The translations under genes and the position numbers were made by a program. The notes below the pieces were generated by a model, which saw nothing but the letters and a program-made list of their open reading frames with translations, searched no databases and was not told where the DNA came from. Shown one piece after another: positions 3,331-20,687 of a DNA stretch of 36,661 bases. Source of the stretch: Escherichia phage HK75; sequence record HM173637; one strand, 5' to 3'. The first letter of the stretch is position 1, and every line of letters begins with the position of its first letter.

Positions 3331-3335
3331 TTTTT

Positions 3336-4025: not shown

Positions 4026-4027
4026 TT

Positions 4028-5185
4028 ATGTCTGAACTCGCTCTCATTCAAAAAGCTATCGAAGAATCCCAGCAGAAAATGACCCAGCTTTTCAATGCGC
4101 AGAAAGCAGAAATCGAAAGCACAGGCCAGGTTTCCAAACAGTTGCAGTCCGACCTGATGAAAGTACAGGAAGAGCTGACCAAATCCGGCACTCGCCTCTT
4201 CGATCTGGAACAGAAACTGGCATCCGGCGCTGAGAATCCTGGTGAGAAGAAATCCTTCTCTGAACGGGCTGCTGAAGAGCTTATTAAGTCATGGGACGGT
4301 AAACAGGGCACCTTTGGCGCTAAAACGTTTAACAAGTCACTAGGCAGTGACGCTGATTCGGCTGGCTCACTGATCCAGCCTATGCAGATCCCAGGCATCA
4401 TCATGCCAGGCCTGCGCCGTCTTACCATTCGTGATCTGCTGGCTCAGGGCCGCACTTCCAGTAACGCTCTGGAATATGTGCGTGAAGAGGTGTTTACCAA
4501 TAACGCCGACGTGGTGGCAGAGAAAGCACTGAAGCCAGAATCGGATATCACCTTCAGCAAACAAACCGCGAACGTGAAGACCATCGCGCACTGGGTGCAG
4601 GCATCACGTCAGGTGATGGATGATGCGCCAATGCTTCAGTCCTACATTAACAACCGCCTCATGTACGGCCTGGCACTGAAGGAAGAGGGCCAGCTGCTGA
4701 ACGGCGACGGTACCGGGGATAACCTGGAAGGGCTGAACAAAGTGGCAACCGCCTATGACACCTCGCTGAATGCCACCGGCGACACCCGCGCTGACATTAT
4801 CGCTCACGCTATTTATCAGGTGACCGAGTCTGAGTTCAGCGCTTCCGGTATCGTCCTGAACCCGCGCGACTGGCACAACATCGCGTTGCTGAAAGACAAT
4901 GAAGGCCGCTATATCTTCGGTGGTCCTCAGGCATTCACCAGTAACATCATGTGGGGCTTGCCAGTGGTTCCGACTAAGGCGCAGGCCGCCGGCACCTTTA
5001 CCGTAGGCGGTTTCGATATGGCCTCACAGGTCTGGGATCGCATGGATGCCACCGTGGAAGTTAGCCGTGAAGACCGCGATAACTTCGTGAAAAACATGCT
5101 GACCATCCTGTGCGAAGAGCGTCTGGCGCTGGCGCATTATCGCCCGACAGCAATCATCAAGGGCACCTTCTCTTCTGGCTCATGA
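4028..5185 (+). CDS. Major capsid protein (HK97 fold)
   Basis: 385-aa ORF directly after the protease; N-terminal coiled-coil delta-domain-like region followed by capsid body; hairpin attenuator immediately downstream. Confidence 0.85.
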   Translation: MSELALIQKAIEESQQKMTQLFNAQKAEIESTGQVSKQLQSDLMKVQEELTKSGTRLFDLEQKLASGAENPGEKKSFSERAAEELIKSWDGKQGTFGAKTFNKSLGSDADSAGSLIQPMQIPGIIMPGLRRLTIRDLLAQGRTSSNALEYVREEVFTNNADVVAEKALKPESDITFSKQTANVKTIAHWVQASRQVMDDAPMLQSYINNRLMYGLALKEEGQLLNGDGTGDNLEGLNKVATAYDTSLNATGDTRADIIAHAIYQVTESEFSASGIVLNPRDWHNIALLKDNEGRYIFGGPQAFTSNIMWGLPVVPTKAQAAGTFTVGGFDMASQVWDRMDATVEVSREDRDNFVKNMLTILCEERLALAHYRPTAIIKGTFSSGS

Positions 5186-5191
5186 TGGAGG

Positions 5192-5214
5192 GGGCGGGGA
5201 AACCCGCCCTTTTA
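5192..5214 (+). terminator. Intrinsic terminator/attenuator after major capsid gene
   Basis: GGGCGGG-gaaa-CCCGCCC hairpin followed by TTTTAA. Confidence 0.45.
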
Positions 5215-5218
5215 ACGT

Positions 5219-5545
5219 ATGGCGATAGATGTTCTGGATGTAATTTCCCTCAGTCTGTTTAAGCAGCAGATTGAGTTTGAGGAAGACGACAGGGACGAGC
5301 TGATCACGCTGTACGCCCAGGCCGCTTTTGACTACTGCATGCGCTGGTGCGATGAACCAGCATGGAAGGTTGCGGCTGATATTCCTGCCGCCGTTAAGGG
5401 CGCCGTTCTGCTTGTCTTTGCTGACATGTTTGAACACCGGACGGCACAAAGCGAAGTGCAGCTTTATGAGAATGCAGCCGCCGAACGCATGATGTTCATT
5501 CATCGCAACTGGCGCGGTAAAGCCGAATCAGAGGAGGGCTCCTGA
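5219..5545 (+). CDS. Head-tail connector (gp6-like)
   Basis: 108-aa ORF first after capsid; position and size. Confidence 0.5.
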   Translation: MAIDVLDVISLSLFKQQIEFEEDDRDELITLYAQAAFDYCMRWCDEPAWKVAADIPAAVKGAVLLVFADMFEHRTAQSEVQLYENAAAERMMFIHRNWRGKAESEEGS

Positions 5546-5883
5546 TGGAACCAGGACGATTCAGGCACCGGGTAAAAATTCTCACCTTCACGACTTCGCG
5601 CGATCCATCTGGTCAGCCGGTTGAATCGTGGACAGGTGGCAACCCGGTCCCGGCTGAGGTAAAGGGGATCAGCGGCAGAGAGCAGCTTTCAGGCGGCGCG
5701 GAAACGGCGCAGGCAACGATTCGCGTCTGGATGCGCTTCAGGTCAGAGCTGAATGCCTCTTCTCGTCTGGAAGTGCTCAGCGGCCCGTATAAAGGTCAGG
5801 TGCTAAATATCATCGGTCCTCCTGTAGCAAATGCGACTGGCACTCGCCTGGAAATTCTTTGCAAAACGGGAGCTGAAAAATGA
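5545..5883 (+). CDS. Head-tail adaptor / head closure protein
   Basis: 112-aa ORF, start overlaps the preceding stop (ATGA), canonical position. Confidence 0.5.
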   Translation: MEPGRFRHRVKILTFTTSRDPSGQPVESWTGGNPVPAEVKGISGREQLSGGAETAQATIRVWMRFRSELNASSRLEVLSGPYKGQVLNIIGPPVANATGTRLEILCKTGAEK

Positions 5884-6329
5884 TTGAGACGAGCCTCGAT
5901 TTTTCCGGGTTAAATGACATCGCAAAGGATCTGGAGGCGCTTAGCCGCGCTGAAAACAATAAGGTTCTTCGTGATGCCACCCGCGCCGGCGCGGAAGTGC
6001 TTAAGGAAGAAGTGATCGCCCGCGCGCCGGTGCGTACCGGGAAACTGAAAAAAAACGTGGTGGTGGTGACCCAAAAAAGCCGCCGTCGCGGGGAAATTTC
6101 TTCCGGCGTCCATATTCGTGGTGTTAACCCGCGCACCGGGAACAGCGATAACACGATGAAGGCTAATAACCCGAGAAACGCCTTTTACTGGCGATTCGTT
6201 GAGCTGGGTACCGCGAACATGCCTGCACATCCGTTTGTGCGACCCGCTTACGATACTCGCGAGGAAGAGGCCGCCAGCGTCGCCATTGCCAGGATGAATC
6301 AGGCTATTGATGAGGTATTGAGCAAGTGA
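5880..6329 (+). CDS. HK97 gp10-family tail component
   Basis: 149-aa ORF, translationally coupled, position in the head-tail joining block. Confidence 0.55.
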   Translation: MIETSLDFSGLNDIAKDLEALSRAENNKVLRDATRAGAEVLKEEVIARAPVRTGKLKKNVVVVTQKSRRRGEISSGVHIRGVNPRTGNSDNTMKANNPRNAFYWRFVELGTANMPAHPFVRPAYDTREEEAASVAIARMNQAIDEVLSK

Positions 6330-6673
6330 ATGAAGATAATATCTACGCCTTGCTTTCTCCCCTGGCAGAAGGACGGGTATATCCCTATGTTGCGCCATTA
6401 GGTAGTGACGGTAAACCGTCTGTCTCTCCACCCTGGATTATCTTTTCCATCGTCGATGATGTTTCCGCTGACGTGCTGTGTGGTCAGGCAGAGAGCAGGG
6501 TTTCCGTTCAGGTCGATGTGTATTCCACTTCGATCGCTGAATCACGATCCCTGAGAGATTTGGTGCTCGCTTCGCTTGAGCCGTTAACCCCTACAGAGGT
6601 GGTAAAAATACCCGGGTACGAGCCAGATTATCGGCTCTACCGTGCCACCCTGGATTTTAAAGTTACCCCCTGA
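6326..6673 (+). CDS. Tail completion/terminator-like protein
   Basis: 115-aa ORF, GTG start overlapping the previous stop, last gene before the major tail protein. Confidence 0.4.
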   Translation: MNEDNIYALLSPLAEGRVYPYVAPLGSDGKPSVSPPWIIFSIVDDVSADVLCGQAESRVSVQVDVYSTSIAESRSLRDLVLASLEPLTPTEVVKIPGYEPDYRLYRATLDFKVTP

Positions 6674-6692
6674 CAATTAATTCACCCAACGA

Positions 6693-6719
6693 ACCCGCCA
6701 GATGGCGGGTTTTCTTTTT
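6693..6719 (+). terminator. Hairpin plus T-run upstream of major tail gene
   Basis: ACCCGCC-agat-GGCGGGT followed by TTTTCTTTTT. Confidence 0.35.
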
Positions 6720-6732
6720 CCAGGAGACAGCT

Positions 6733-7437
6733 ATGTCTGCACTTTATGAAAAATCGCAGCTGACGAAGATCCTTATTTCCTCCCTGCCGTCCACCAAAGA
6801 AACGATGGATTCCGCCACCTTTCTCGATCTGAGTTGCACCATCAAAGAAATTCAGTTCACTGGTGGCCAGAAGCAGGATATCGACGTAACAACACTTTGC
6901 TCTACCGAGCAGGAGAACATCAACGGCCTGCCTTCTCCGTCAGAAATCTCTCTGTCCGGCAACTTCTACAATAATCCAGCGCAGGACGCCTTGCGTGATG
7001 CGTATGACAACGACACCACTTACGGCTTCCAGATCATCTTCCCGTCAGGTAATGGTTTTAAGTTCCTGGCCGAAGTTCGCCAGCATACCTGGTCATCTGG
7101 TACCAATGGTGTTGTGGCAGCTACATTCTCACTGCGCCTTAAAGGCAAGCCTGTCCCGATTGACTCTGTACTTAAACTGACCACTGATCTTCCTTCCTCA
7201 CTGTCTGTAGCGGTGGGGGCTGCGATCAGCATGGCTGTAGTAGCTGCCGGTGGTAAGCCTCCGTATGCCTACACCTGGAAGAAGGCAGGTAGCACCGTCA
7301 GCGGGCAGACATCCGATACCTTTAATAAAGCCACCGCAGTTTCAGGTGATGCAGGTGATTACACCTGTGTGGTTACGGATTCTTCTTCTCCGGTCAAAAC
7401 GGTTACCTCAGCTGCCTGCACCCTTACTATCAGTTAA
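6733..7437 (+). CDS. Major tail protein with C-terminal Ig-like domain (lambda V-like)
   Basis: 234 aa; Ser/Thr/Val-rich C-terminal segment resembling a Big_2 Ig-like domain; precedes G/T chaperone genes. Confidence 0.7.
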   Translation: MSALYEKSQLTKILISSLPSTKETMDSATFLDLSCTIKEIQFTGGQKQDIDVTTLCSTEQENINGLPSPSEISLSGNFYNNPAQDALRDAYDNDTTYGFQIIFPSGNGFKFLAEVRQHTWSSGTNGVVAATFSLRLKGKPVPIDSVLKLTTDLPSSLSVAVGAAISMAVVAAGGKPPYAYTWKKAGSTVSGQTSDTFNKATAVSGDAGDYTCVVTDSSSPVKTVTSAACTLTIS

Positions 7438-7471
7438 TGGAGATGCCGGGTTGTCCCGGCATGGATAAGCG

Positions 7472-7858
7472 ATGTCGCAAACTTTAAAACAATTAGCCAT
7501 GGCGAAAATGGCTGGCTTTCGCCATAAGACGGTCGTTGTCCCTGAGTGGGAAGGTGTCAAAGTGGTTCTCCGTGAGCCGTCAGGTGAAGCCTGGCTGCGC
7601 TGGCAGGAGGTGGTGAAAGGGGGGGCCGACGATGAAAATGTGTCGGTATCGGAAAAGGCGCACCGTAATCTTTGCGCTGACGTGGTGCTCTTCATTGACG
7701 TTCTGTGTGACACCGATAAGCAACCGGTATTCAGCGTAGACGAAGAAGAGCAGGTGCGTGAAATCTACGGGCCCGTGCACTCACGTCTGCTCAAACAGGC
7801 GCTTGACCTGATCAACAATGCGGACGAAGCGCGGGAAAAGTCTCAACCCCCGGCGTAA
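7472..7858 (+). CDS. Tail assembly chaperone (lambda G-like)
   Basis: 128-aa ORF between major tail and tape measure genes; ends next to a slippery GGGAAAAG run. Confidence 0.6.
   Translation: MSQTLKQLAMAKMAGFRHKTVVVPEWEGVKVVLREPSGEAWLRWQEVVKGGADDENVSVSEKAHRNLCADVVLFIDVLCDTDKQPVFSVDEEEQVREIYGPVHSRLLKQALDLINNADEAREKSQPPA
7833..7840 (+). other. Candidate -1 programmed frameshift site (G to G-T fusion)
   Basis: cGGGAAAAG at the 3' end of the G-like ORF; the downstream ORF is open in the -1 frame from at least 7831. Confidence 0.45.
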
Positions 7859-7866
7859 AGTTTCTG

Positions 7867-8145
7867 ATGTCGCTTGCGCTCCGGATGGGGCGCACGCTCT
7901 CAGAGCTTCGGCAGAATATGACGGCAAGCGAGCTTCTGATGTGGATTGAGTACGACAGGCAAAGCCCGGTTGGCGATATTCGCGGTGATATCCATGCAGC
8001 GCAGATTGTCTCTGCCATCTACGGCTCGCAGGGGGCAAAAGTACCGCTGGACGATGCGATCCTGCGCTGGGGTGGTGATGAGCAATCAGAACCGAAGGAC
8101 CCGTTTGCAGGGCTTGAGGCGGCACTTACAGCTGCGACACAATAA
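7867..8145 (+). CDS. Tail assembly chaperone T-segment, probably expressed only as G-T frameshift fusion
   Basis: 92-aa ORF in the -1 frame relative to G, no convincing own RBS, conserved G/T arrangement of tailed phages. Confidence 0.5.
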   Translation: MSLALRMGRTLSELRQNMTASELLMWIEYDRQSPVGDIRGDIHAAQIVSAIYGSQGAKVPLDDAILRWGGDEQSEPKDPFAGLEAALTAATQ

Positions 8146-8202
8146 TTGCTTCACATGCCTTCAATGTAGCGATACGCTCTTTCCTTAAGTAAAGGAGGCG
8201 TT

Positions 8203-8391
8203 ATGGAACCACTGGTAGTAGTGTTTGGAATATTCGGCTGGCTGATAAATCTAATTGTGATTTTTTATTTATTACGGTTTAGCACAAGGGCAAATGAACA
8301 AGTTGAAGCCCTTAAAGAGATAAATAAAAAGCAAGATGCGCAAATAGATTTATTAATACAAGTCGCTCACCAAAGAAAAGACAGTTTATAA
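8203..8391 (+). CDS. Small single-pass membrane protein (moron A), unknown function
   Basis: 62 aa; AAGGAGG RBS at 8192-8198; N-terminal hydrophobic helix then charged tail with RFSTRANEQVEALKEI motif; AT-rich; own terminator. Confidence 0.5.
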   Translation: MEPLVVVFGIFGWLINLIVIFYLLRFSTRANEQVEALKEINKKQDAQIDLLIQVAHQRKDSL

Positions 8392-8397
8392 CTCACG

Positions 8398-8422
8398 ACC
8401 CGCTATCAAGCGGGTTTTTTTT
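8398..8422 (+). terminator. Intrinsic terminator after moron A
   Basis: ACCCGC-tatcaa-GCGGGT followed by TTTTTTTT. Confidence 0.6.
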
Positions 8423-8434
8423 ATGGGTGAAAAT

Positions 8435-11400
8435 ATGGCTACGTTGCGCGAACTGATCATCAAAATATCTGCAAACTCTCAGTCATTCCAGTCTGAAATT
8501 TCTCGTGCTTCAAGAATGGGGAATGACTATTACCGGGTAATGCAGACTGGAGGACGCCAATCGGCCGCAGCTTCGCGTGAAACTCAGCGTGCCTTGGCTG
8601 AGGTAACTAGTCAAATAAACACCGCGAAGGCCTCAGCACTGGGAATGGCTGGTGCATTTGCTGGAGCATTTGCGACTGGTCATCTTATATCGCTGGCCGA
8701 TGAATGGAGCTCTGTTAATGCCAGGCTAAAGCAGGCTTCCCAGTCGTCAGATGATTTCACGGAGTCCCAGCGGGCGCTGATGGATATTAGCCAGCGAACC
8801 GGAACCGCCTTCTCTGATAATGCGAGTCTTTTTGCGCGTTCAGCCGCTTCTATGCGTGAATATGGCTACAGTTCAGAAGAGGTTCTGAAGGTAACCGAGG
8901 CTATATCAACAGGGCTTAAGCTGTCAGGCGCAAGCGCGTCTGAAGCGAGTTCGGTAATCACGCAGTTCAGCCAGGCTCTGGCGCAGGGTGTTCTTCGAGG
9001 CGAGGAATTTAACTCCGTCAACGAAAACGGTGATCGAGTTATCCGTGCTCTTGCCGCAGGGATGGGTGTAGCTCGTAAAGATCTGAAGGCAATGGCCGAT
9101 CAGGGGATGCTAACCGCAGATAAAGTTGTCCCGGCCCTGATAAGTCAACTTGGCACTATGCGTGGTGAATTTGAGGCAATGCCGCAGACCGTTTCTGCTG
9201 CCACGACGAAAGTCGAAAATGCTTTCATGGCATGGGTAGGTGGCGCTAATGAAGCCACTGGTGCGACAAGTACTCTTGTTGCCGTATTGAATACGGTTTC
9301 TGACAATATAGACACTGTGGCTACGGCTGCCGGAGCTTTGGCTGCGATAGGTGGAGCTCGCTATCTTGGAGGGATGTTTGGCGATCTTGGGAACCAGACG
9401 GCGCAATTAATAGATGCCAGAAAGAACGAAATTGCGCTCGCAGCTGCAAGGGCTGAATCTGCTACCCAATCACAACGCAAGGCCGCCGCCGATGCTATTG
9501 CTGCTGAGCGAGCTTACCAGCTTGCTCAGTCAGAACTTGTGCTGGCAAAGAATACTAATGCTGAGGCTACTGCCACTCAAAATGCCATATCCAAGCGCCG
9601 GGCAATGATTACAGCAAATGCGGCACTGGTACAGTCAAACAGAGCCGTTGCAGCCTCTCAGCAGGCACTTAACTCTGCAACATCAGTGCTGGGGCTTGTA
9701 AAAACTGGCGCTACGGGTCTTTTGTCGTTAGTTGGTGGTTTGCCAGGAATTTTAATGTTGGGTGCTGGGGCGTGGTACACGATGTATCAACGCCAAGAAC
9801 AAGCCAGGGAATCTGCAATCCAATATGCGGACACAATCGAGCAGGTACGAGATAATCTGAAATCAATGTCTCAGACGCAGATATCCGCCAACCTTGGACA
9901 GGCGAATATTTCACTGGATGCTCAGAATAGTGCGATTGAACAGCAGAAGCAGAAAGTTGCTGAATTATCAAATCAACTTTATAACGCAAAATTAGCAGCC
10001 AATTCTGCTTCAGAGGGGACATGGCTGTATAACGATGCGGTTGAGAAAGCCGCAGACTTTGCTTCAGAACTTGCGGTTGAAGAAGGCCGACTTGAGCAAA
10101 TGCTCAATAAAAGAAAGCAAACACAACAGTTAATAAACGACATAACTGATCAGGCTATAAATAAAACAGTAGAAATGGCTGGCGCCGTAAGTTCTCTTAC
10201 AGAGATGTATGACCGGCTGAACAAGGTTTCCAGACAGTCTACAGCAGTGTCCCCACCAAAATATGCAGGACCTGTACTTCCTGCGCTTGATAATAAGCAA
10301 CAACAAGCTATTGAGAAAGCACAGCGACAGCTTGAGCTATCTGGCCTTCAGGGTTTGGATAAGGCTCGAAAGCAGGCAGAATTCGATGCATCTGATCTGA
10401 ACCTTCCAGCTGGTTGGCGTGAGAAATATGTCAGCATGGAAGTTGAGTCTGCCAGGCAATTACAAGCAATTCGTAACTCAAGCCGCCATAAGGGTGGAAA
10501 ATCCGAGGCGGAAAAAACAGCTGATACCTATGACAAGCTGATCAAGCAGCAAAAAGAGCAGATCGCTCTGCAAGGGCAGAATACCGAGCTGGCAAAGGTT
10601 AAATATCAGGTAAGCCAGGGTGAGCTTTCTACGCTAAGTCAGGCCCAGAAAGCCGAAGTTATGCGTAATGCTGCTCTCATCGATCAGGTTAAATTGCGTG
10701 AGCAACTGCGAAATTACGAAGCCAACCTTGCTGACAGTAACGACAGCGCCCGCGCAGCCAATGAAGCGCAACTGCTGGGCTACGGGCAGGGAACCAGGTT
10801 CCGTGAAAGACTTCAGGAGCAGTTCAATCTGCGTAAGGAGTTTGAGCAGAAGAATACCGATCTTCTCCGCCAGCGTCAGGCTGGTGAAATCGACGAGACG
10901 TTCTATCAGCAGGGGCTGGCACTTAATAAGCGCTACCTCGAAGAGCGCCTGCGCGACCAGGAGGGATATTACGCAGCTTCTGATGCGCAGCGTGACGACT
11001 GGATGACGGGACTGTCTGAGGGTTATGCGAACTGGGTGGATGAAGCGACAGATTACTCCTCCATGGCAGCTGACGGGATGAAGCAGGCAATGGGTGGGGC
11101 GGTAACTTCGATTACTGACATGCTCAATGGTAACGTCGACAGCTGGAAGGACTGGGGTGTCAGCGTACTGAAGATCATCCAGAATGTTCTGGTCAATATG
11201 GCTGTTGCTAACGGCGTCAGTTCAATTGGTTCTCTCTTCAGCTTTGGCGCATCTTCCGCCGCTGCCGCCAGTAGCGGTACTGCAATTCAGAACGCTGGCG
11301 CGAACTTCACCTTTAACGCGAAGGGTAATGTTTACGACTCTCCGTCCCTGAGCGCATACAGCAATGGCGTGTTTCAGACCCCTCAGCTTTTTGCTTTTGC

Positions 11401-11701
11401 CAAAGGAGCGGGTGTGTTTGCAGAGGCTGGACCTGAAGCCATTATGCCGCTTACCCGTGCTGCTGATGGTTCGCTTGGCGTTCGGGCTGTTGGCACTGGT
11501 GGTGGTCAGGCTGTATCTTCGGCTCCACAGGTTTACATCACCATCGATGGCAACGGAAATACTTCCACGCAGACTTCACCCGGCCTTGAGCAATTTGGTG
11601 CTGATGTCGGTAAATATATTGATCAGCGATATAAGCAGAACATCATGCGAGATATTCGGCCTGGCGGTGACATCTGGAACGCAATGAAAGGAACCCGATA
11701 A
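8435..11701 (+). CDS. H: Tail tape measure protein
   Basis: About 1090 aa, Ala/Gln-rich coiled-coil character, between the chaperone genes and M; alternative in-frame ATG at 8423. Confidence 0.85.
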   Translation: MATLRELIIKISANSQSFQSEISRASRMGNDYYRVMQTGGRQSAAASRETQRALAEVTSQINTAKASALGMAGAFAGAFATGHLISLADEWSSVNARLKQASQSSDDFTESQRALMDISQRTGTAFSDNASLFARSAASMREYGYSSEEVLKVTEAISTGLKLSGASASEASSVITQFSQALAQGVLRGEEFNSVNENGDRVIRALAAGMGVARKDLKAMADQGMLTADKVVPALISQLGTMRGEFEAMPQTVSAATTKVENAFMAWVGGANEATGATSTLVAVLNTVSDNIDTVATAAGALAAIGGARYLGGMFGDLGNQTAQLIDARKNEIALAAARAESATQSQRKAAADAIAAERAYQLAQSELVLAKNTNAEATATQNAISKRRAMITANAALVQSNRAVAASQQALNSATSVLGLVKTGATGLLSLVGGLPGILMLGAGAWYTMYQRQEQARESAIQYADTIEQVRDNLKSMSQTQISANLGQANISLDAQNSAIEQQKQKVAELSNQLYNAKLAANSASEGTWLYNDAVEKAADFASELAVEEGRLEQMLNKRKQTQQLINDITDQAINKTVEMAGAVSSLTEMYDRLNKVSRQSTAVSPPKYAGPVLPALDNKQQQAIEKAQRQLELSGLQGLDKARKQAEFDASDLNLPAGWREKYVSMEVESARQLQAIRNSSRHKGGKSEAEKTADTYDKLIKQQKEQIALQGQNTELAKVKYQVSQGELSTLSQAQKAEVMRNAALIDQVKLREQLRNYEANLADSNDSARAANEAQLLGYGQGTRFRERLQEQFNLRKEFEQKNTDLLRQRQAGEIDETFYQQGLALNKRYLEERLRDQEGYYAASDAQRDDWMTGLSEGYANWVDEATDYSSMAADGMKQAMGGAVTSITDMLNGNVDSWKDWGVSVLKIIQNVLVNMAVANGVSSIGSLFSFGASSAAAASSGTAIQNAGANFTFNAKGNVYDSPSLSAYSNGVFQTPQLFAFAKGAGVFAEAGPEAIMPLTRAADGSLGVRAVGTGGGQAVSSAPQVYITIDGNGNTSTQTSPGLEQFGADVGKYIDQRYKQNIMRDIRPGGDIWNAMKGTR

Positions 11702-11703
11702 AA

Positions 11704-12042
11704 ATGGCTATCGAAACTTTCACCTGGTGCCCACGGATTAACGCGGAGGCTGATACAAGTTTCCGCGTCAGAAAAGCCCAGTTTGGCGATGGATATGAGC
11801 AGGTTTCAGGGGATGGATTGAATACCAGAACCCAGCAGTGGACGCTCAACTTTACTGGCAACGAAACCTACATTTCTGCCATTAAATCTTTTCTCGACAG
11901 GCATGAAGGAACGAAAGCCTTTCAATGGAAGCCACCGCTCGAACCTTTGGGTTTGTATCGTTGCGAAACGTATAAACCCACCGGGCTTGGCGCGGGGAAA
12001 TTCAACCTTGAAGCAACATTCATCCAGGCATTTAAACCATGA
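11704..12042 (+). CDS. M: Minor tail protein M
   Basis: 112-aa ORF directly after the tape measure, lambda gene order. Confidence 0.75.
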   Translation: MAIETFTWCPRINAEADTSFRVRKAQFGDGYEQVSGDGLNTRTQQWTLNFTGNETYISAIKSFLDRHEGTKAFQWKPPLEPLGLYRCETYKPTGLGAGKFNLEATFIQAFKP

Positions 12043-12797
12043 GCTTAAACGCAGACTATCAGAAGCTTGAATCCGGAAACGATGTTCGTCTGATTGAGGT
12101 GGACGGTTCTTCCTTTGGGCTAACGGACGTTCTCCGCTTTCACAATTACAGCATTCCCCACACAGAAGCGGAAATCATCGCCGCTGGTGGGGATGAGTCC
12201 AAGCTTCCGGCGAAACCAATCTGGTGGCAGGGAAATGAATACGCCGCCTGGCCGTATCAGCTGGAAGGCCTGGAAAAATCAACCAGTGGGAGCAATGCAA
12301 CGCCATCACTGACGGTTGCGAACATCGAAAGCTCTATTTCTGCCATGTGTCTTGCGTATGACGATCTGCTGCAGGCGAAAGTCACTATTCACGACACAAA
12401 AGAGAAATATCTCGATGCCAGAAATTTCGCGGACGGCAACCCCACAGCAGACCCGACTCAGGAAAAGCTGCAGGTCTGGTATATCGACGGGAAAACTGGC
12501 GAGCTTGCCGGTGAAACCGTTGAATTTGTTCTGTCCAGCCCGATGGACCTGCAGGGGCAAATGATCCCGACGCGACAGCTTCATTCCCTGTGTACCTGGT
12601 GCATCCGAAATAAATATCGTACCGGCGACGGCTGCGACTATGCCGGCACCCGCTATTTCGATAAAAACAACAACCCGGTAAGCGATCCGTCGCTGGATGA
12701 ATGCAATGGCACGCTGACGGCCTGCAAACTCCGATTCGGCGAAAATAACGAACTCTCGTTTGGTGGCTTCCCTGGTACGTCGCTGATCAGGAGTTGA
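12039..12797 (+). CDS. L: Minor tail protein L
   Basis: 252 aa, Cys cluster near the C-terminus (CTWC...C...C) as in lambda gpL, coupled start. Confidence 0.75.
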   Translation: MSLNADYQKLESGNDVRLIEVDGSSFGLTDVLRFHNYSIPHTEAEIIAAGGDESKLPAKPIWWQGNEYAAWPYQLEGLEKSTSGSNATPSLTVANIESSISAMCLAYDDLLQAKVTIHDTKEKYLDARNFADGNPTADPTQEKLQVWYIDGKTGELAGETVEFVLSSPMDLQGQMIPTRQLHSLCTWCIRNKYRTGDGCDYAGTRYFDKNNNPVSDPSLDECNGTLTACKLRFGENNELSFGGFPGTSLIRS

Positions 12798-12798
12798 T

Positions 12799-13509
12799 AT
12801 GCGTCAGAAAACCATCGATGCGATTATGGCGCATGCTGCAGCTGAATATCCTCGTGAGTGTTGCGGCGTGGTGGCGCAAAAGAGCCGGGTAGAGAAATAT
12901 TTTCCATGTAGTAACCTCGCTACCGAGCCGACAGAACATTTTCACCTGTCGCCAGAAGACTATGCAGCTGCTGAGGACTGGGGTACGGTGATCGCCATCG
13001 TTCACAGTCACCCTGACGCCACAACGCAGCCGAGCGAACTGGATAAAGCGCAATGCGACGCAACGCTTTTACCCTGGCATATTGTGAGCTGGCCGGATGG
13101 GGATTTACGCACCATCCAGCCGCGCGGAGAACTGCCACTGCTGGAGCGTCCGTTTGTGCTTGGACACTTCGACTGCTGGGGGCTGGTAATGAGCTATTTC
13201 CGGCAAACGCATGGTATCGAGCTCCACGATTACCGGGTGGATTATCCCTGGTGGGAAAACGCCTATCCGGACAATTTTTATCAGGATTGCTGGTATGAAT
13301 GCGGATTCAGGGAGTTTGACGGCCCGCCTCAGGAAGGGGACCTCGTCATCATGCAGGTGCAGGCCGATAAGTGGAATCATGCCGGGATTTTACTGGAGGG
13401 TAACATGCTGCTGCACCACCTGTACGGACATCTGAGCCAGCGCGTGCCGTATGGGGGCTACTGGCAGGAAAGGACGATGAAGATTCTTAGACATCAGAAT
13501 TTTATTTAA
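12799..13509 (+). CDS. K: Tail assembly protein K (MPN/JAB plus NlpC/P60-like)
   Basis: 236 aa with HSHP motif and conserved Cys/His, lambda K position. Confidence 0.75.
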   Translation: MRQKTIDAIMAHAAAEYPRECCGVVAQKSRVEKYFPCSNLATEPTEHFHLSPEDYAAAEDWGTVIAIVHSHPDATTQPSELDKAQCDATLLPWHIVSWPDGDLRTIQPRGELPLLERPFVLGHFDCWGLVMSYFRQTHGIELHDYRVDYPWWENAYPDNFYQDCWYECGFREFDGPPQEGDLVIMQVQADKWNHAGILLEGNMLLHHLYGHLSQRVPYGGYWQERTMKILRHQNFI

Positions 13510-13556
13510 CAAACTGTCACTGATACTATCGTGTAGCACACAGCAAGGAGAACGAT

Positions 13557-13781
13557 ATGTATACAGTTGGGTTTGGTTGGATCTTCGTCGGTATTTTTAT
13601 TGGGTTAATTCTCTGGTTTTTCATCAACCGCGCCAGCGTCAGAGCGAACAGGCAGGTTGAATTACTTGAGTCTATCGACCAGAAATTATCAAAAATAGTA
13701 GATCCAAACTTCGAGGCAAATAACAAAGACCAGTCGAAAGAAAACTACCTTGAAGAAGCAAGGAAAAAAGCTGGGCTTTGA
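13557..13781 (+). CDS. Small single-pass membrane protein (moron B), paralog of moron A
   Basis: 74 aa; AAGGAG RBS at 13545-13550; TM helix then NRASVRANRQVELLESI motif shared with the 8203-8391 protein; own terminator. Confidence 0.5.
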   Translation: MYTVGFGWIFVGIFIGLILWFFINRASVRANRQVELLESIDQKLSKIVDPNFEANNKDQSKENYLEEARKKAGL

Positions 13782-13796
13782 GAGCGTAAATTAACA

Positions 13797-13820
13797 AACC
13801 ACCTACGGGTGGTTTTTTTT
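13797..13820 (+). terminator. Intrinsic terminator after moron B
   Basis: AACCACC-tacg-GGTGGTT followed by TTTTTT. Confidence 0.6.
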
Positions 13821-13831
13821 ATGGGGGCAGC

Positions 13832-14440
13832 ATGCAAGAGGTAATGACAAGAATTGAGCTAAGTGGCGTGCTAGCTAAGACATATGGAAGGGTTCATCAC
13901 CGTCTGGTTCGCACTACTGCTGAAGCCATTAATGCACTCGCGAAAACCATCAATGGATTCGAGAAATTCTTAAACACAAGCAAGGCCCGAGGGCTGACGT
14001 ATGCCGTTTATAGAGATAAAAAGAATATTGGCGTTGATGATCTCGGCTTTCCCGTCACCGGCGAAGTGATCCGGATTGTCCCTGTAGTAATAGGGAGTAA
14101 AAAGGCTGGTCTTTTGCAGACGATCTTGGGGGCTGTGCTTATTACTGCTGCTGTGTTGACTGGACCAGGCGGTATTGGCGCTGCTTTCGCTGCTGGTGGA
14201 TTGACGGGGTTTGCTGCTGCCACTGGTGCCTCGTTGGTCCTCGGTGGGGTTATTCAGCTGCTTTCACCGCAGCCATCAGGCATAGCCAGTAAACAAAGCG
14301 CAGATAACCGTGCATCGTATGCGTTTGGCGGGGTAACCAACACTGCAGCGCAAGGCTACCCGGTGCCTCTGCTTTATGGTAAGCGTCGAATCGGCGGAGC
14401 GATTATTTCTGCCGGAATTTATGTCGAAGATCAGCAGTAG
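13832..14440 (+). CDS. I: Tail assembly protein I
   Basis: 202 aa with Gly/Ala-rich hydrophobic C-terminal half, between K and J as in lambda. Confidence 0.7.
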   Translation: MQEVMTRIELSGVLAKTYGRVHHRLVRTTAEAINALAKTINGFEKFLNTSKARGLTYAVYRDKKNIGVDDLGFPVTGEVIRIVPVVIGSKKAGLLQTILGAVLITAAVLTGPGGIGAAFAAGGLTGFAAATGASLVLGGVIQLLSPQPSGIASKQSADNRASYAFGGVTNTAAQGYPVPLLYGKRRIGGAIISAGIYVEDQQ

Positions 14441-14459
14441 ATAACTAACCTTTTTTCTG

Positions 14460-14481
14460 GCCACCTTCGGGTGGCTTTTTT
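14460..14481 (+). terminator. Hairpin plus T-run between I and J
   Basis: GCCACC-ttcg-GGTGGC followed by TTTTTT. Confidence 0.5.
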
Positions 14482-14492
14482 ATGGGCGCAAT

Positions 14493-17400
14493 ATGGCTAC
14501 AGATAAAGTGTTAAAAGGCCGCAAGGGCGGCAGCTCAAGTTCCCGAACCCCTACCGAACAGCCTGATGATCTGCAATCTGTAGCGAAGGCAAAGATCCTC
14601 GTTGCGCTTGGGGAAGGGGAGTTTGCTGGACAGCTCACCGGGAAGGATATCTACCTGGACGGAACAGCGCTGGAGAATGCTGACGGCTCCCAAAACTTCA
14701 GCGGGGTAACGTGGGAGTTTCGCGCGGGAACGCAGGCGCAAAAATATATTCAGGGTATTCCCGGTACCGAAAACGAGATCAGCGTAGGAACTGAGGTATC
14801 AAGTGCCACAGCCTGGACGCGCACGTTTACCAATACGCAGCTTTCAGCAGTTCGCCTGCGTCTTAAATGGCCCTCGCTTTTCAAACAGGAAGACGACGGC
14901 GATCTGGTGGGTTACTCGGTCAATTATGCGATTGACCTGCAGACGGACGGCGGCACATGGCAGACGGTACTCAATACCAGCGTGACCGGAAAAACGACGT
15001 CTGGTTATGAGCGCAGCCACCGCATCGATTTACCGCAGGCTGGCAGCACCTGGACAATCCGCCTGCGTAAGATTACCTCTGACGCCAACAGCGCGAAGAT
15101 CGGCGACACGATGACGCTGCAGAGCTTCACTGAGGTTATTGACGCCAAGTTACGATATCCAAACACAGCGTTACTCTACATCGAATTCGATTCAAGCCAG
15201 TTTAACGGCTCTATCCCGCAGATCTCCTGCGAGCCCCGCGGCCGTGTTATCCGCGTTCCTGATACCTACGACCCTGAAACCCGCACTTATAGCGGTACAT
15301 GGACCGGTGCGTTTAAGTGGGCATGGACGGATAACCCTGCGTGGATTTTTTACGATCTGGTTGTTTCTGACCGGTTCGGCCTTGGGCACCGTTTGACCGC
15401 TGCGAATATTGATAAATGGACGCTTTATCAGGTTGCTCAGTATTGTGATCAGATGGTACCAGACGGCAAAGGGGGCAACGGTACAGAACCACGCTATACC
15501 TGCAACGTGTACATTCAGGACCGGAACGACGCCTACACAGTCCTACGTGATTTTGCCGCTATCTTCCGTGGCATGACCTACTGGGGCGGGGATCAGATTG
15601 TGGCCCTGGCTGACATGCCGCGCGATGTTGATTACAGCTATACGCGCGCTAACGTTGTTGGCGGTCGCTTCACCTATTCGAGCAGCACCACGAAAAGCCG
15701 CTACACCACAGCGCTGGTTTCATGGTCAGACCCGGGTAACGCTTATGCCGACGCGATGGAGCCGGTATTTGAGCAGGCGCTGGTGGCGCGGTACGGCTTC
15801 AATCAGCTGGAAATGACAGCCATCGGCTGCACCAGGCAGTCAGAGGCGAACCGAAAGGGGCGCTGGGGTATTCTCACCAATAACAAGGATCGCGTTGTTT
15901 CGTTTGATGTCGGGCTGGACGGAAACATTCCGCAGCCTGGCTACATCATCGCCGTGGCAGACGAGCTGCTTTCCGGAAAGGTTATGGGCGGCCGCATCAG
16001 CGCCGTTAACGGTCGCGTTATCAAACTTGACCGCGTAGCTGATGCAGCACCAGGTGATCGCCTTATTCTCAACCTTCCCTCCGGAGCGTCGCAGAGCAGG
16101 ACCATTCAGGCCGTGAACGGGGAATCAGTCACAGTCACCACGGCATACAGTGAGACGCCACAGGCCGAAGCTGTTTGGGTGGTTGAATCTGACGAGCTCT
16201 ACGCGCAGCAGTATCGAGTTGTCAGCGTTTCCGATAACGGGGATGGCACTTTCTCAATCACCGGCGCATGGCACGACCCGGATAAATATGCCCGTATCGA
16301 TACCGGAGCCATCATTGACCAGCGGCCGGTGAGCGTGATTCCGCCGGGTAACCAGTCGCCGCCTGCGAACATCGTGATCAGCTCGTTTTCCGTGGTTCAG
16401 CAAAATATCAGCGTCGAAACAATGCGCGTGAGCTGGGACCAGGCGCAGAACGCTATCGCCTATGAAGCGCAATGGCGCCGCAACGACGGGAACTGGGTTA
16501 ACGTGCCGCGCACCTCCACCACGTCATTCGACGTCCCGGGGATTTATGCCGGGCGCTACCTGGTGCGGGTGCGCGCAATCAATGCCGCAGAAATTTCATC
16601 CGGATGGGGCTATTCAGAAGAGAAAACGCTGACGGGTAAAGTGGGCAATCCACCTAAGCCGGTTGGCTTCATCGCTTCTGAAAATGTGGTTTTCGGCATC
16701 GAGCTGAACTGGGGATTCCCGGCGAATACCGACGACACGCTGAAGACGGAAATTCAGTACAGCCTGACCGGTACTGAAGACGATGCCATGCTGCTGGCCG
16801 ATGTGCCTTACCCGCAGCGCAAATATCAGCAGATGGGCCTTAAGGCTGGGCAGATTTTCTGGTACCGCGCGCAGCTGGTTGACCGCAGCGGTAACGAGTC
16901 AGGTTATACCGGCTGGGTTCGTGGGCAGGCCAGTATCGATGTTTCTGACATCACAGATGTGATCCTTGAAGACATCAAAGGGTCTGAGACGTTCAAAGAC
17001 CTGATCGAGAACGCTGTGGACAGCAATGAAAAAATTGCTGGCATGGCTGACGACATCAAACAGGCCAACGATGAACTTGAACTCCAGGCGCAGGAAATCG
17101 CAAAAAACGCGCAGGACATCGGGCAGGTTCAGACCAGCGTTAATGAGCTTTCTAGCACGGTCGGTGATGTGTCGTCTTCTCTCTCAGATCTTGAGCAGAC
17201 TGTTGCGACTGCTGATACCGCACTGGGCCAGCGAATCGACAGCATCAGCGTGTCTATGGACGGCATGACGGGCGGGGTGAAGAACTCTGCTATCGCAATT
17301 ATCCAGAACGGGCTGGCACAAGTGGCTACGCGTAAATCGTTGTCAGCTTCGGTCGCAGGGAACAGTGCGCAGCTGGATCGTATTGATGAGGTAATCGTTA

Positions 17401-18044
17401 ACGAGAAGGAGGCAACGGCGCGTTCTCTGCTGAGCCTGCAGACGGATGTCAACGGCAACAAGGCATCCATAAACAGCCTGAATCAGACGTTCTCCGACTA
17501 TCAGCAGGCTACGGCCACGCAGATAAACGGCATTACGGCGACCGTGAACGGGCATACCTCCGCCATCACCACTAACGCTCAGGCGATAGCCAACGTTAAT
17601 GGCGACCTCAGCGCGATGTACAACATCAAGGTTGGCGTTTCCAGCAACGGTCAGTATTACGCCGCGGGGATGGGTATCGGCGTGGAGAATACGCCATCCG
17701 GCATGCAGTCGCAGGTTATCTTCCTGGCTGATCGCTTCGCCGTCACCACGGCAGCCGGAAATAGCGTGGCTTTGCCGTTTGTGATCCAGAATGGACAGAC
17801 ATTCATCCGGGCCAGCTTCATCCAGGACGGCACCATTGAGAACGCCAAAATCGGCAACTATATCCAGTCCAACAACTATGCAGCTGGTTCTGCTGGCTGG
17901 AAGCTTGATAAAGGGGGGACGTTTGAGAACTACGGTTCGACTGCTGGTGAGGGAGCCATGAAACTGACAAATCAGACGATCAGCGTCAAAGATGGCAGTA
18001 ATGTTCTTAGGGTGCAGGTTGGCCGATTAACGGGAGTATTCTGA
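14493..18044 (+). CDS. J: Host specificity / central tail fibre protein J
   Basis: 1183 aa, lambda J position and size, fibronectin-III-like central region, variable C-terminus. Confidence 0.85.
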   Translation: MATDKVLKGRKGGSSSSRTPTEQPDDLQSVAKAKILVALGEGEFAGQLTGKDIYLDGTALENADGSQNFSGVTWEFRAGTQAQKYIQGIPGTENEISVGTEVSSATAWTRTFTNTQLSAVRLRLKWPSLFKQEDDGDLVGYSVNYAIDLQTDGGTWQTVLNTSVTGKTTSGYERSHRIDLPQAGSTWTIRLRKITSDANSAKIGDTMTLQSFTEVIDAKLRYPNTALLYIEFDSSQFNGSIPQISCEPRGRVIRVPDTYDPETRTYSGTWTGAFKWAWTDNPAWIFYDLVVSDRFGLGHRLTAANIDKWTLYQVAQYCDQMVPDGKGGNGTEPRYTCNVYIQDRNDAYTVLRDFAAIFRGMTYWGGDQIVALADMPRDVDYSYTRANVVGGRFTYSSSTTKSRYTTALVSWSDPGNAYADAMEPVFEQALVARYGFNQLEMTAIGCTRQSEANRKGRWGILTNNKDRVVSFDVGLDGNIPQPGYIIAVADELLSGKVMGGRISAVNGRVIKLDRVADAAPGDRLILNLPSGASQSRTIQAVNGESVTVTTAYSETPQAEAVWVVESDELYAQQYRVVSVSDNGDGTFSITGAWHDPDKYARIDTGAIIDQRPVSVIPPGNQSPPANIVISSFSVVQQNISVETMRVSWDQAQNAIAYEAQWRRNDGNWVNVPRTSTTSFDVPGIYAGRYLVRVRAINAAEISSGWGYSEEKTLTGKVGNPPKPVGFIASENVVFGIELNWGFPANTDDTLKTEIQYSLTGTEDDAMLLADVPYPQRKYQQMGLKAGQIFWYRAQLVDRSGNESGYTGWVRGQASIDVSDITDVILEDIKGSETFKDLIENAVDSNEKIAGMADDIKQANDELELQAQEIAKNAQDIGQVQTSVNELSSTVGDVSSSLSDLEQTVATADTALGQRIDSISVSMDGMTGGVKNSAIAIIQNGLAQVATRKSLSASVAGNSAQLDRIDEVIVNEKEATARSLLSLQTDVNGNKASINSLNQTFSDYQQATATQINGITATVNGHTSAITTNAQAIANVNGDLSAMYNIKVGVSSNGQYYAAGMGIGVENTPSGMQSQVIFLADRFAVTTAAGNSVALPFVIQNGQTFIRASFIQDGTIENAKIGNYIQSNNYAAGSAGWKLDKGGTFENYGSTAGEGAMKLTNQTISVKDGSNVLRVQVGRLTGVF

Positions 18045-19093: not shown

Positions 19094-19327
19094 ATGAAAA
19101 GGCTAATTATCTGCATAGCGGGCGCTTTAATGCTGTCTGGTTGCGCTGGTGTACTTGAGAAACAGAAACCGATTTGCAGCGGCACGGCATATATGGGTGG
19201 CCATGAGAATACCGTTATGATTTACGCCGTTCGAAAGCAAAACAACCAGACGCAATACCGGGCCGGATATCCCTTTAACTGGCGCTGGGTAAGTGCGAAC
19301 ACATTCACAAGCACGACATGTAAATAA
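19094..19327 (+). CDS. Small lipoprotein (moron), possible Cor-like superinfection exclusion protein
   Basis: 77 aa; signal peptide with lipobox LSGC (Cys17); preceded by a 107-bp AT-rich spacer and followed by a hairpin plus T-run. Confidence 0.5.
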   Translation: MKRLIICIAGALMLSGCAGVLEKQKPICSGTAYMGGHENTVMIYAVRKQNNQTQYRAGYPFNWRWVSANTFTSTTCK

Positions 19328-19346
19328 CTCATGATTTTCAATGCAA

Positions 19347-19372
19347 ACCTCGCCTCGGCGGGGTTTTTTATT
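19347..19372 (+). terminator. Terminator-like hairpin after the lipoprotein gene
   Basis: GC-rich imperfect stem (CCTCGCC...GGCGGGG) followed by TTTTTTATT. Confidence 0.35.
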
Positions 19373-19385
19373 GCCTGGAGAAAAT

Positions 19386-20687
19386 ATGCTTTATAACACT
19401 GGAACCATCGCCATTAACGGAAACAGCGCCACCGGCACGGGCACGAACTGGACGGCACCCGCCAGCCAGGTTCGCGCTGGCCAGACGATTATCGTGATGT
19501 CTAACCCGGTGCAGCTGTTTCAGATTTCATCCGTGAACAGCGCCACGTCAATGACGGTTACTCCAGCTGCTTCCCCTGCGCTGAGCGGCCAGAAGTACGG
19601 CATTCTGGTATCAGACAATATCTCGGTCGACGGACTGGCACAGGCGATGTCTCAGCTCATCAAAGAGTATGACGAGAATATTGGCGCATGGGAGACGTTC
19701 GCTACTACCTCAGCAAACCAGAGCATCACGGTAACTATAAACGGCACCCCCGTGACTATCCCCGGCATCGGTAAGCTGGCACAGAAAGGAACCAACGGTG
19801 CTCTCCCGATTGACCAGGGCGGGACTGGTGCAACTAACGCTGCAGACGTTCGCACAAACCTCAGTTTGGGAAGTAGCGCTTTATTGGATGCTCAAAGTTC
19901 CTGGAGTGATTCCGGTCAAAAGAAAGTTCTAACTGTGGGGGCTTTTGGTCTGGGGCGTGAAATTACTGAATCAGTTCCACTTAATACTATGAGCGAGTAC
20001 TACCCCTCATCGTTTATATGGTCGGTAGAGGACGCCAGCTACATGGGTGTCTCAGGAAGTCAGAACATTACCTCTATCGTAATAGCTCGCGGAGGAAGAC
20101 CAACTCGCATTCATCAAATATACACGTTAGGGAGGACTTTCTTCAGTTACCGAACACCTACAGGGTGGCTGTATCAGGAAGCCTACACAACGGGGAACAC
20201 CACTAAGGCGAGCGATGGCACGCTAAAAGCGGCTTCACCAGTTGCCCGCATAGTAACGAGTCGCGATGCATGCCAGCGCGCTGACGTAGCAGAAGATGGT
20301 TTCTCCTGGTGCGGCTGCGGGACAGCAAACGCAGAGGCGGAGGGCATAACCCTTTCTCGCCTTGAGGCGGGTGTTTACCAGCTGACAGGTTCAGCAGGCC
20401 TGGCATCGGAGGGATGGCAACTACTGCCCCCAATGGACCCTGGCGGCATGGGAGAACTGGGCGTGGTTGAGGCAGAGAAAACCGATAACGGCGAACTGAC
20501 AATCCGTCTGTTTAAGCGCAAATACATGCTGGGCGATGAAGGTGAGATTGTAAAAACAAAAGGGGAGCCTATCGACGTACCGGCTAACAGCTGGATTGAT
20601 GTTCGGCTGGACATGCCTGAAAACAGCGTCTGGAATCAGCGCCAGAAAGAGGCGATGGCAAAAGAGACTCAGGAACCTGCTTCGTAA
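19386..20687 (+). CDS. Tail fibre protein
   Basis: 434 aa from the ATG at 19386 (GGAG RBS at 19377-19380); Gly/Thr/Ser-rich, N-terminus typical of fibre anchoring domains; last structural gene before attP. Confidence 0.55.
   Translation: MLYNTGTIAINGNSATGTGTNWTAPASQVRAGQTIIVMSNPVQLFQISSVNSATSMTVTPAASPALSGQKYGILVSDNISVDGLAQAMSQLIKEYDENIGAWETFATTSANQSITVTINGTPVTIPGIGKLAQKGTNGALPIDQGGTGATNAADVRTNLSLGSSALLDAQSSWSDSGQKKVLTVGAFGLGREITESVPLNTMSEYYPSSFIWSVEDASYMGVSGSQNITSIVIARGGRPTRIHQIYTLGRTFFSYRTPTGWLYQEAYTTGNTTKASDGTLKAASPVARIVTSRDACQRADVAEDGFSWCGCGTANAEAEGITLSRLEAGVYQLTGSAGLASEGWQLLPPMDPGGMGELGVVEAEKTDNGELTIRLFKRKYMLGDEGEIVKTKGEPIDVPANSWIDVRLDMPENSVWNQRQKEAMAKETQEPAS

Follow-up and report, generated by a model that had tools for sequence, protein, structure and literature searches.

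Hairpin, T-run and ATGGG junctions before the tail genes H, I and J of phage HK75 as probable terminators fused to ribosome-binding sites

Introduction

What is the hairpin that stands, three times over and in much the same form, at the entrance of a tail gene? In Escherichia phage HK75 (sequence record HM173637; the whole stretch of 36,661 nucleotides is called the window, and its numbering is used unless another sequence is named), the genes H, I and J each follow a GC-rich hairpin, a run of T's and the letters ATGGG. A preliminary description of this DNA offered two explanations for the repeated junction: the footprint of cassette insertion by recombination at a short conserved sequence, or a shared signal for translational re-initiation. 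The comparison with related phages and prophages presented here points elsewhere. The junctions are very probably canonical Rho-independent terminators packed against the region where translation of the following essential tail gene begins, and hence a conserved part of the phage backbone, not insertion scars.

The hairpins and the small genes beside them are already known, being annotated in reference genomes as terminators and as morons, the latter defined as genes with their own promoter and terminator (PMC3594210). What we add is a refinement: the terminators before H and J persist across genera without an inserted gene, at a fixed distance of 14–21 nucleotides (nt) ahead of the start codon, and accessory genes lie 5' of them. 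This bears on where moron boundaries are drawn, on start-codon annotation (8435 and not 8423 for H; probably 19386 and not 19341 for a tail-fibre gene), and on the engineering of cargo into temperate phages without activating tail genes in the lysogen.

Results

The sequences bear out the three look-alike junctions of the preliminary description, with hairpin, T-run and ATGGG at each; its strings before I and J lie where it placed them, and the one before H begins at 8412, not 8410. We refer to the junctions as T-H, K-I and I-J after their flanking genes. All three share one order: a GC-rich stem of 7–8 base pairs (bp), including 4–5 G-C pairs, on the transcribed strand, a 4-nt loop, six to eight T's and ATGGG, with the start codon 11–12 nt past the A of that motif. 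Before H, the predicted intrinsic terminator (8397–8422, + strand) comprises a hairpin at 8397–8416 (GACCCGCT/ATCA/AGCGGGTT; −13 kcal/mol in the centroid fold) and eight T's at 8415–8422, and the putative ribosome-binding region (8423–8437, + strand) comprises ATGGG at 8423–8427, the Shine-Dalgarno (SD) sequence GGGTGA at 8425–8430, the spacer AAAT and the ATG at 8435. Its counterpart before I (13796–13820, + strand) has a hairpin at 13796–13815 with a UACG tetraloop (AAACCACC/TACG/GGTGGTTT) and eight T's at 13813–13820; in the adjoining ribosome-binding region (13821–13834, + strand), ATGGG occupies 13821–13825, and A-T, the SD sequence GGGGG and the spacer CAGC lead to the ATG at 13832. Before J, the predicted terminator (14459–14481, + strand) pairs a hairpin at 14459–14476 with a UUCG tetraloop (GGCCACC/TTCG/GGTGGCT) and six T's at 14476–14481, followed by a ribosome-binding region (14482–14495, + strand) with ATGGG at 14482–14486 and ATGGGCGCAAT ahead of the ATG at 14493. 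A terminator scan scored all three hairpins as terminator-like, and the same hairpins appear in centroid folds; an Rfam scan of 3000–15000 at E≤1 matched zero families.

The likeness of the three junctions exceeds chance. TTTTTTATGGG has exactly three exact copies in the window, before H, I and J, and with at most one mismatch it has four matches, all on the + strand and all directly past a late-operon hairpin, the fourth lying at 3330; shuffled sequence gave a mean of 0.93 such matches and reached four in 1 of 100 shuffles. GGTTTTTTTTATGGG is the top direct-repeat family in 7400–14700. The mutual likeness of the pre-I and pre-J stems, on the other hand, is not beyond chance: among 33 loci, K-I and I-J stems of one genome were no more often alike than stems taken from different genomes (3 observed, 4.4 expected, p=0.89). 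The two stems look alike in the window because no variant is commoner, at either site, than CCACC/GGTGG with a UNCG loop. Since no same-genome excess of identical stems was seen, gene conversion between the two hairpins, or duplication of one from the other, was rejected.

Over bases 7800–14600 the window is 98–99% identical to Escherichia phages HK633, mEpX1 and HK97; it is an HK97/HK633-type lambdoid phage, and the region the tail part of its late operon. We located the three junctions in 51 prophage loci with I homologues, taken from GTDB species genomes, and in 80 viral contigs with close H homologues; some counts below are of distinct junctions. The GTDB loci cover Enterobacter, Citrobacter, Kosakonia, Kluyvera, Rahnella, Erwinia, Yersinia, Morganella and others.

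At I-J, hairpin and T-run are present in 46 of the 49 loci that have both genes, the only loci without a hairpin being three from Morganella. No cargo lies between I and J in 31 of the 49, where a mere 41–62 nt separate the genes and hairpin, T-run and ATGGGCGCAAT are all kept; the 15 hairpin loci that do carry cargo have 317–2029 nt of it. Short spacers (..aaCCTTTcwTTCAG) recur in the cargo-free I-J loci of several genera. Gene 15, the T-H cargo of the window, is missing from 11 of 14 loci of the GTDB set, in which the gap shrinks to 32–35 nt (25 nt in one) and the stop codon nearly touches the stem. Nine of these 11 pass a strict hairpin and T-run test, one (L014) has a weaker T-run and one (L024) has no hairpin. 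Four K-I junctions without cargo have a hairpin as well, imperfect in one, and a Kosakonia locus (L016) is cargo-free at all three sites with perfect pre-H and pre-J terminators. This persistence in cargo-free relatives (31 of 49 at I-J, nine to ten of 11 at T-H and four at K-I) contradicts the reading of the junction as an insertion footprint; the preliminary description had itself named identical junctions in relatives without insertion as the observation that would speak against it, and comparison with relatives found them.

The structure of the pre-J stem appears to be under selection. Across the alignment, 94.3% of cells in the helix are paired, as against 34–68% after sliding the partners; a compensatory change is seen at one pair, which is A-U in 22 sequences and G-C in 17; the covariation score was reached by none of 500 shuffles; and 44 of 44 aligned junctions have the T-run without variation.

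What, then, does ATGGG stand for? The motif appears to consist of the last spacer bases past the U-tract and the G's of a Shine-Dalgarno sequence. These G's lie 4–7 nt ahead of the start codon in the window, as in an ordinary SD element. In relatives, the sequence past the T-run varies at K-I and T-H (TATGGGGG, TATTGGAG, TATGGTGA, TTTGGAGA, ATTTCTGGAGA, ATTAGGTGG, CGCCTGGAGA and more) and the ATG of ATGGG is swapped for ATTAGG, ATTGG, CGCCTGGAG and others, and GGAG, GGGG or GGTG is always found 4–9 nt ahead of the start. An SD-like 4-mer at −16 to −4 is present in 34 of the 36 distinct junctions at K-I and in 37 of the 41 distinct ones at I-J, and only 15 of the 36 K-I junctions have an ATG between stem and start. 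Variation is smaller before J, where the T-run is followed by ATGG(G/A) in 39 of the 41. From the end of the stem to the start codon, 14–21 nt are counted in all but three of 85 distinct junctions.

These features leave little room for a shared re-initiation signal. The stop-to-start gaps in the window are 43, 50 and 52 nt, the G's are an ordinary SD sequence, and the comparison found no conserved upstream open reading frame (ORF). The translationally coupled junctions in the operon are of the ATGA type, as between M and L at 12039–12042. H and J do share their first letters, as had been noticed, and the shared ATGGCTAC just encodes Met-Ala-Thr.

All three gaps are hot spots for varied cargo in relatives, in keeping with the early view of them as module boundaries. 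Close relatives carry at least 12 different inserts at T-H, of 283–1851 nt. Inserts at K-I span 0.3–6.4 kb, the largest being found in Erwinia typographi (6.4 kb; L022 615–7000) and others reaching 1.7–2.7 kb (L010, L040, L050). Among the K-I cargo are two lipoprotein families (12 loci each), neither with a Pfam match, a KilA-N protein and a zinc-ribbon membrane protein. By its low GC content, YebO-type membrane proteins, lipoproteins and KilA-N, the cargo seems to be of the kind typical of morons. Its place is invariably 3' of the upstream stop codon and 5' of the hairpin; each cargo gene has a terminator behind it, and hairpins stand at the same sites also without cargo. Two E. coli prophages, of strains ES5 and ECONIH5 (L056 1947–2470 and L057), are an exception to the design: their T-H gap holds a reverse-oriented gene for a 139-amino-acid hypothetical protein with its own hairpin beside the T stop codon, and no hairpin or T-run precedes H.

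In the window, two of the sites are occupied. Gene 15 (8203–8391, + strand), in the T-H gap, encodes a 62-amino-acid protein of the YebO family with one predicted transmembrane helix (Pfam PF13974 at 1.2e-9), 98–100% identical to gp15 of HK97 and HK633; HK97 gp15 is a moron product, a YebO-like superinfection-exclusion protein expressed from the prophage (PMC3594210). It brings the gap to 289 nt, as compared with 25–35 nt in the 11 relatives without it. Gene 20 (13557–13781, + strand), in the K-I gap, encodes 74 amino acids of the same family (PF13974 at 1.8e-12), 100% identical to HK022 gp20, which is annotated as 'moron gene product'; this gap is 322 nt, as compared with −13 to 15 nt in four relatives in which K and I abut or overlap. 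With 43% identity over 44 amino acids, the two products are paralogous YebO-like small membrane proteins at different sites of the tail operon. The GC content of gene 15 is 33% and that of gene 20 is 40%, and T, H, K, I and J are at 51–56%. We rejected the idea that a YebO cassette was recently duplicated, terminator included, between the two sites: the proteins are homologous, whereas neither DNA nor hairpins can be aligned. The gene 20-type ORF (also at L002 7261–7482) is 99% conserved in HK97, yet is unannotated in AF069529.

The third site is unoccupied, as the preliminary description supposed in calling it empty. The I-J gap of the window measures 52 nt and holds no moron, only the short spacer ataactaaccttttttct (14441–14458, + strand) before the hairpin, whereas genes 22 and 23 sit directly 5' of the same hairpin in HK97 and HK022 and this cargo ends exactly at the hairpin's 5' foot; the window thus differs from both phages in lacking the 22/23 cargo and has kept the pre-J terminator.

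In several genera, cargo-bearing I-J gaps share a non-coding stretch 5' of the pre-J hairpin with the motif CCTGATATT(T/C)(G/A)A(T/A)CAG (L002 8690–8810; L003 8100–8205; L009, L014, L015, L017, L021, L022, L028, L029, L034). Its neighbours are the hairpin on one side and, on the other, the start of gene 23, which runs in reverse; in HK97 and HK022 it holds a perfect inverted repeat, CGCCAGTG-n5-CACTGGCG. The stretch might be regulatory, or might encode a small RNA that has the pre-J terminator at its end.

Is the design confined to H, I and J? The tail genes are arranged as G/T (7472–8145), H, the tape measure gene (8435–11701), M, L and K (up to 13509), I (13832–14440) and J (14493–18044), and similar composites are found on either side of them. 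A fourth copy (3307–3350, + strand) has its hairpin at 3307–3328, over the end of the portal gene, followed by AATTTTT, ATGGGGG and the protease start at 3348; the HK97 annotation has a terminator at 3309–3335 and the protease start at 3348. The fifth (19094–19388, + strand) includes the cor moron (19094–19327), whose 77-amino-acid lipoprotein product is 100% identical to HK022 Cor, a protein of FhuA-dependent superinfection exclusion. Past cor come a hairpin at 19345–19366, T6, ATTGCC, the SD sequence TGGAGA and the probable tail-fibre ATG at 19386; HK022 has the same junction. A CC-AGGAGA variant of hairpin, T-run, SD sequence and ATG precedes the major tail gene (6691). HK97 annotates terminators also past the capsid gene and past the major tail gene, and most non-coupled junctions examined in the structural operon, including those around the abundantly expressed capsid and tail-tube genes, have such a hairpin.

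Two of these hairpins have features of their own. Past the major tail gene (7443–7472), the hairpin GCCGGG-TTGT-CCCGGC, a putative terminator in HK97, is followed without a T-run by ATGGATAAGCG-ATG, and an 'ATGG' follows here too. Past the capsid gene (5186–5221), the hairpin GGGCGGG-GAAA-CCCGCCC with TTTTAA lies only 9 nt ahead of the gp6 start; the sole SD-like GGAGG of gp6 is 5' of the stem or inside it, and stem formation would move it near the start codon.

Discussion

We propose the following model for the junctions before H, I and J. Each would be a composite of a GC-rich stem of 6–8 bp, usually with a UNCG-type tetraloop, a U-tract of 6–8 nt, one or two spacer bases and the G's of an SD sequence, with the start codon 4–7 nt further on. 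Such composites belong to the conserved late-operon backbone of HK97- and lambda-like phages and are kept by selection, whether or not a moron lies upstream; the three copies are alike through their shared compact design and a small repertoire of stable stems, not as copies made by recombination. They are also physically tied to the gene downstream: the 22/23 cargo of HK97 and HK022 stops at the 5' foot of the pre-J hairpin, and in three E. coli prophages similarity to the window sets in at 14460. Termination itself is suggested by the sequence of the hairpins and their conservation. The late operon of lambdoid phages is transcribed by a terminator-resistant polymerase. In lytic growth, Q-modified RNA polymerase from pR' would accordingly be expected to read through the hairpins, leaving the operon uninterrupted, and in the mRNA a hairpin and U-tract just 5' of the ribosome-binding site may shield that site or stabilise the segment upstream. 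In the lysogen, unmodified polymerase starting from moron promoters (genes 15, 20 and cor) or from stray promoters would stop at the hairpins, and the tail genes would stay silent.

Any promoter-bearing gene that inserted just 5' of such a hairpin would be insulated at once, which would explain why these gaps gather diverse cargo, always between the upstream stop codon and the hairpin. It is conceivable, and we put this forward as a tentative extension only, that the composites of terminator and ribosome-binding site are an old part of the backbone that predates and channels the acquisition of morons, the gaps being 'safe harbours' for promoter-bearing genes. In that case, what is classically counted as the moron's terminator would often be the phage's own, and the cargo hot spots (T-H, K-I, I-J and before the tail-fibre gene) would be set by backbone terminators.

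Several observations weigh against the proposed model of the junctions. K-I hairpins accompany cargo in 36 of 39 loci and are absent from four of eight cargo-free loci, and the T-H hairpin changes in sequence with the type of cargo among close relatives; the moron may thus, in many cases, bring its terminator along, in line with the classical model. No promoter was found upstream of 8203 (gene 15) or 13557 (gene 20) in a simple sigma-70 consensus scan, and by eye there are only weak candidates ahead of the two genes. The U-tract before J is degenerate in lambda, and the hairpin at 7443 has none, which hints that some hairpins act as RNA elements. Finally, the near-invariance of ATGGGCGCAAT before J exceeds the need of a weak SD sequence. 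Linkage to the well-conserved 5' end of J may be its cause; by ungapped identities, stem type goes with similarity of the J 5' end at p=0.018 and of the I 3' end at p=0.078, weak support for such linkage. In sum, resident terminators are favoured by the I-J and T-H data, whereas the classical moron model accommodates the K-I data and the T-H hairpins that are specific to their cargo.

How much of the pattern could that classical model carry? It would have the terminators arrive with promoter-gene-terminator inserts, and the cargo-free hairpins, including the I-J hairpin of the window, be left behind when genes were deleted. Besides the definition of the moron in the literature and the K-I distribution just described, it can draw on the 12 or more T-H cargo types, each with a different hairpin, and on the pre-J stem GCCGC/GCGGC, seen only with one cargo family. 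The commonest pre-J stems, however, are found both with cargo (four loci) and without it (24 loci), and the 31 cargo-free I-J junctions, from many genera, combine an intact stem, compensatory changes and a perfect T-run with spacers that are mutually similar, not the heterogeneous scars of deletion. At T-H, the cargo-free form is as compact as it can be, with 1 nt separating the stop codon from the hairpin, and it occurs in phages that share only some 60% identity with the T and H of the window; this state is therefore old and maintained. As an explanation of the set as a whole, remnants of morons seem somewhat unlikely. The usual description, in which the moron brings the terminator (PMC3594210), makes no mention of moron-free relatives that have the terminators before H and J too.

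A different possibility is that the hairpin works mainly in the RNA, as a barrier to 3' exonucleases or a processing site by which mRNA stability is set segment by segment, or together with the U-rich stretch as a standby or S1 site tuning translation of H, I and J, termination being incidental. The lambda hairpin kept before J with a broken U-tract, the hairpin without a U-tract past the major tail gene, the presence of hairpins at most non-coupled junctions examined in the structural operon and the tightly fixed distance to the start codon would all be accommodated. An element serving stability alone would have no need of a U-tract, yet 44 of 44 pre-J junctions have it unchanged; for an S1 or Hfq site, the U's would be required. 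The composites also have every sequence feature of strong intrinsic terminators. We regard a primarily RNA-level role as unlikely; in a secondary capacity it is compatible with termination and does not exclude it.

The proposal of the preliminary description, that T-run, ATGGG and start region form a short conserved sequence at which cassettes are swapped by homologous recombination or microhomology, we consider improbable. Breakpoints do coincide with the element. Where H is nearly identical, the T-run is the point at which the variable part, cargo and hairpin, gives way to the constant part (ATGGGTGAAAT-ATG-H). Phages with an H N-terminus 95–100% identical include six cargo classes with different hairpins; the classes of 288/289, 489, 525/526 and 541 nt continue as T-run-ATGGGTGAA(A/T)T-ATGGC, placing the breakpoint at the T-run, and those of 283 and 730 nt do not. 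In HK97 and HK022 the cargo stops where the hairpin begins, the match of three E. coli prophages to the window is limited to 14460 and beyond, starting at the base of the pre-J stem, and YebO-family cargo is found at two different sites. Yet the conserved stretch is about 20 nt long and part of the downstream ribosome-binding site, and selection for that site and the terminator predicts the same breakpoints; the breakpoint at the T-run is explained as well by an intact ribosome-binding site under selection as by a recombination mechanism. At the left end of the cargo, neither a counterpart sequence nor flanking direct repeats were found. The hairpins are not homogenised within genomes, gene 15 and gene 20 cannot be aligned in their DNA, hairpins included, and hence were not transferred between sites recently, and the motif varies freely at K-I and T-H. 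The evidence for recombination at the repeat is weak.

It is most improbable that translation truly starts at the upstream ATG of ATGGG, which would give H an N-terminal extension or open a short regulatory ORF across the starts of I and J: the ATG at 8423 is in frame with H in the window and an ATG lies 11 nt ahead of the J start in 39 of 41 distinct junctions, but the ATG is preceded by the T-run only, with no SD sequence, is missing from most K-I and many T-H junctions, and is conserved in neither frame nor ORF length. In relatives, the pre-H spacer is one base shorter (ATGGGTGAAAT-ATG), which breaks the frame; the in-frame ATG of the window is therefore accidental, and the annotated H start of HK97 is the equivalent of 8435. 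The out-of-frame ORF opened before J runs from 4 to more than 50 codons across relatives, its end not being conserved. A conserved upstream start or upstream ORF was ruled out on these grounds. Mechanical ORF calling begins H at 8423 and the tail-fibre gene at 19341; the likely starts, 8435 and 19386, lie past the hairpin and SD sequence, and for H the relatives with the shorter spacer back this choice.

How do the composites compare with known systems? The closest are the putative terminators and the morons in the late operons of HK97 and HK022 (Juhala et al. 2000, as annotated in AF069529, NC_002166 and NC_019719), which are the same elements in the same positions. In the records of HK633 and HK97, each of the three junctions bears the annotation of a rho-independent terminator (in HK97 at 8398–8422, at 13799–13824 and before J); HK97 labels gp15, gp22 and gp23 as moron products, and HK022 so labels gp20, gp22, gp23 and Cor. 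In lambda-type Q antitermination, with tR' and terminators downstream, one meets the same GC-rich hairpin and U-tract on the transcribed strand within an operon of about 20 kb. Unlike tR', which lies at the start of the operon, the terminators of the window lie in among the structural genes, each fused to a ribosome-binding site, and their read-through under Q would follow by analogy. Integron attC sites and other site-specific cassette junctions likewise place a short repeat at the downstream end of variable single-gene inserts, but here the other end of the insert has no repeat, no recombinase is linked, and the repeat is variable and fully explained as terminator plus ribosome-binding site. 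Two further leads were set aside: Hfq-binding prophage small RNAs, the sites of which are near pR' and stx, outside the tail operon (Tree et al. 2014, PMC4104026), and a paper on the Tai defence system (PMC11364771), which is not relevant to these sites.

Phage lambda has a hairpin of its own in the homologous position between I and J (AACCGCC-TGCG-GGCGGTT, lambda 15,460–15,500), with a stem of the type seen in many of the surveyed pre-J stems. We know of no described function for it. ATGGAG and the J start (ATGGAGCGTGAGGA-ATG) follow the hairpin; lambda differs in its interrupted U-tract (TTTTGTCATTT) and in having no cargo at T-H, K-I or I-J. The lambda hairpin region corresponds to positions 5946–6008 of locus L055 (lambda 15445–15507).

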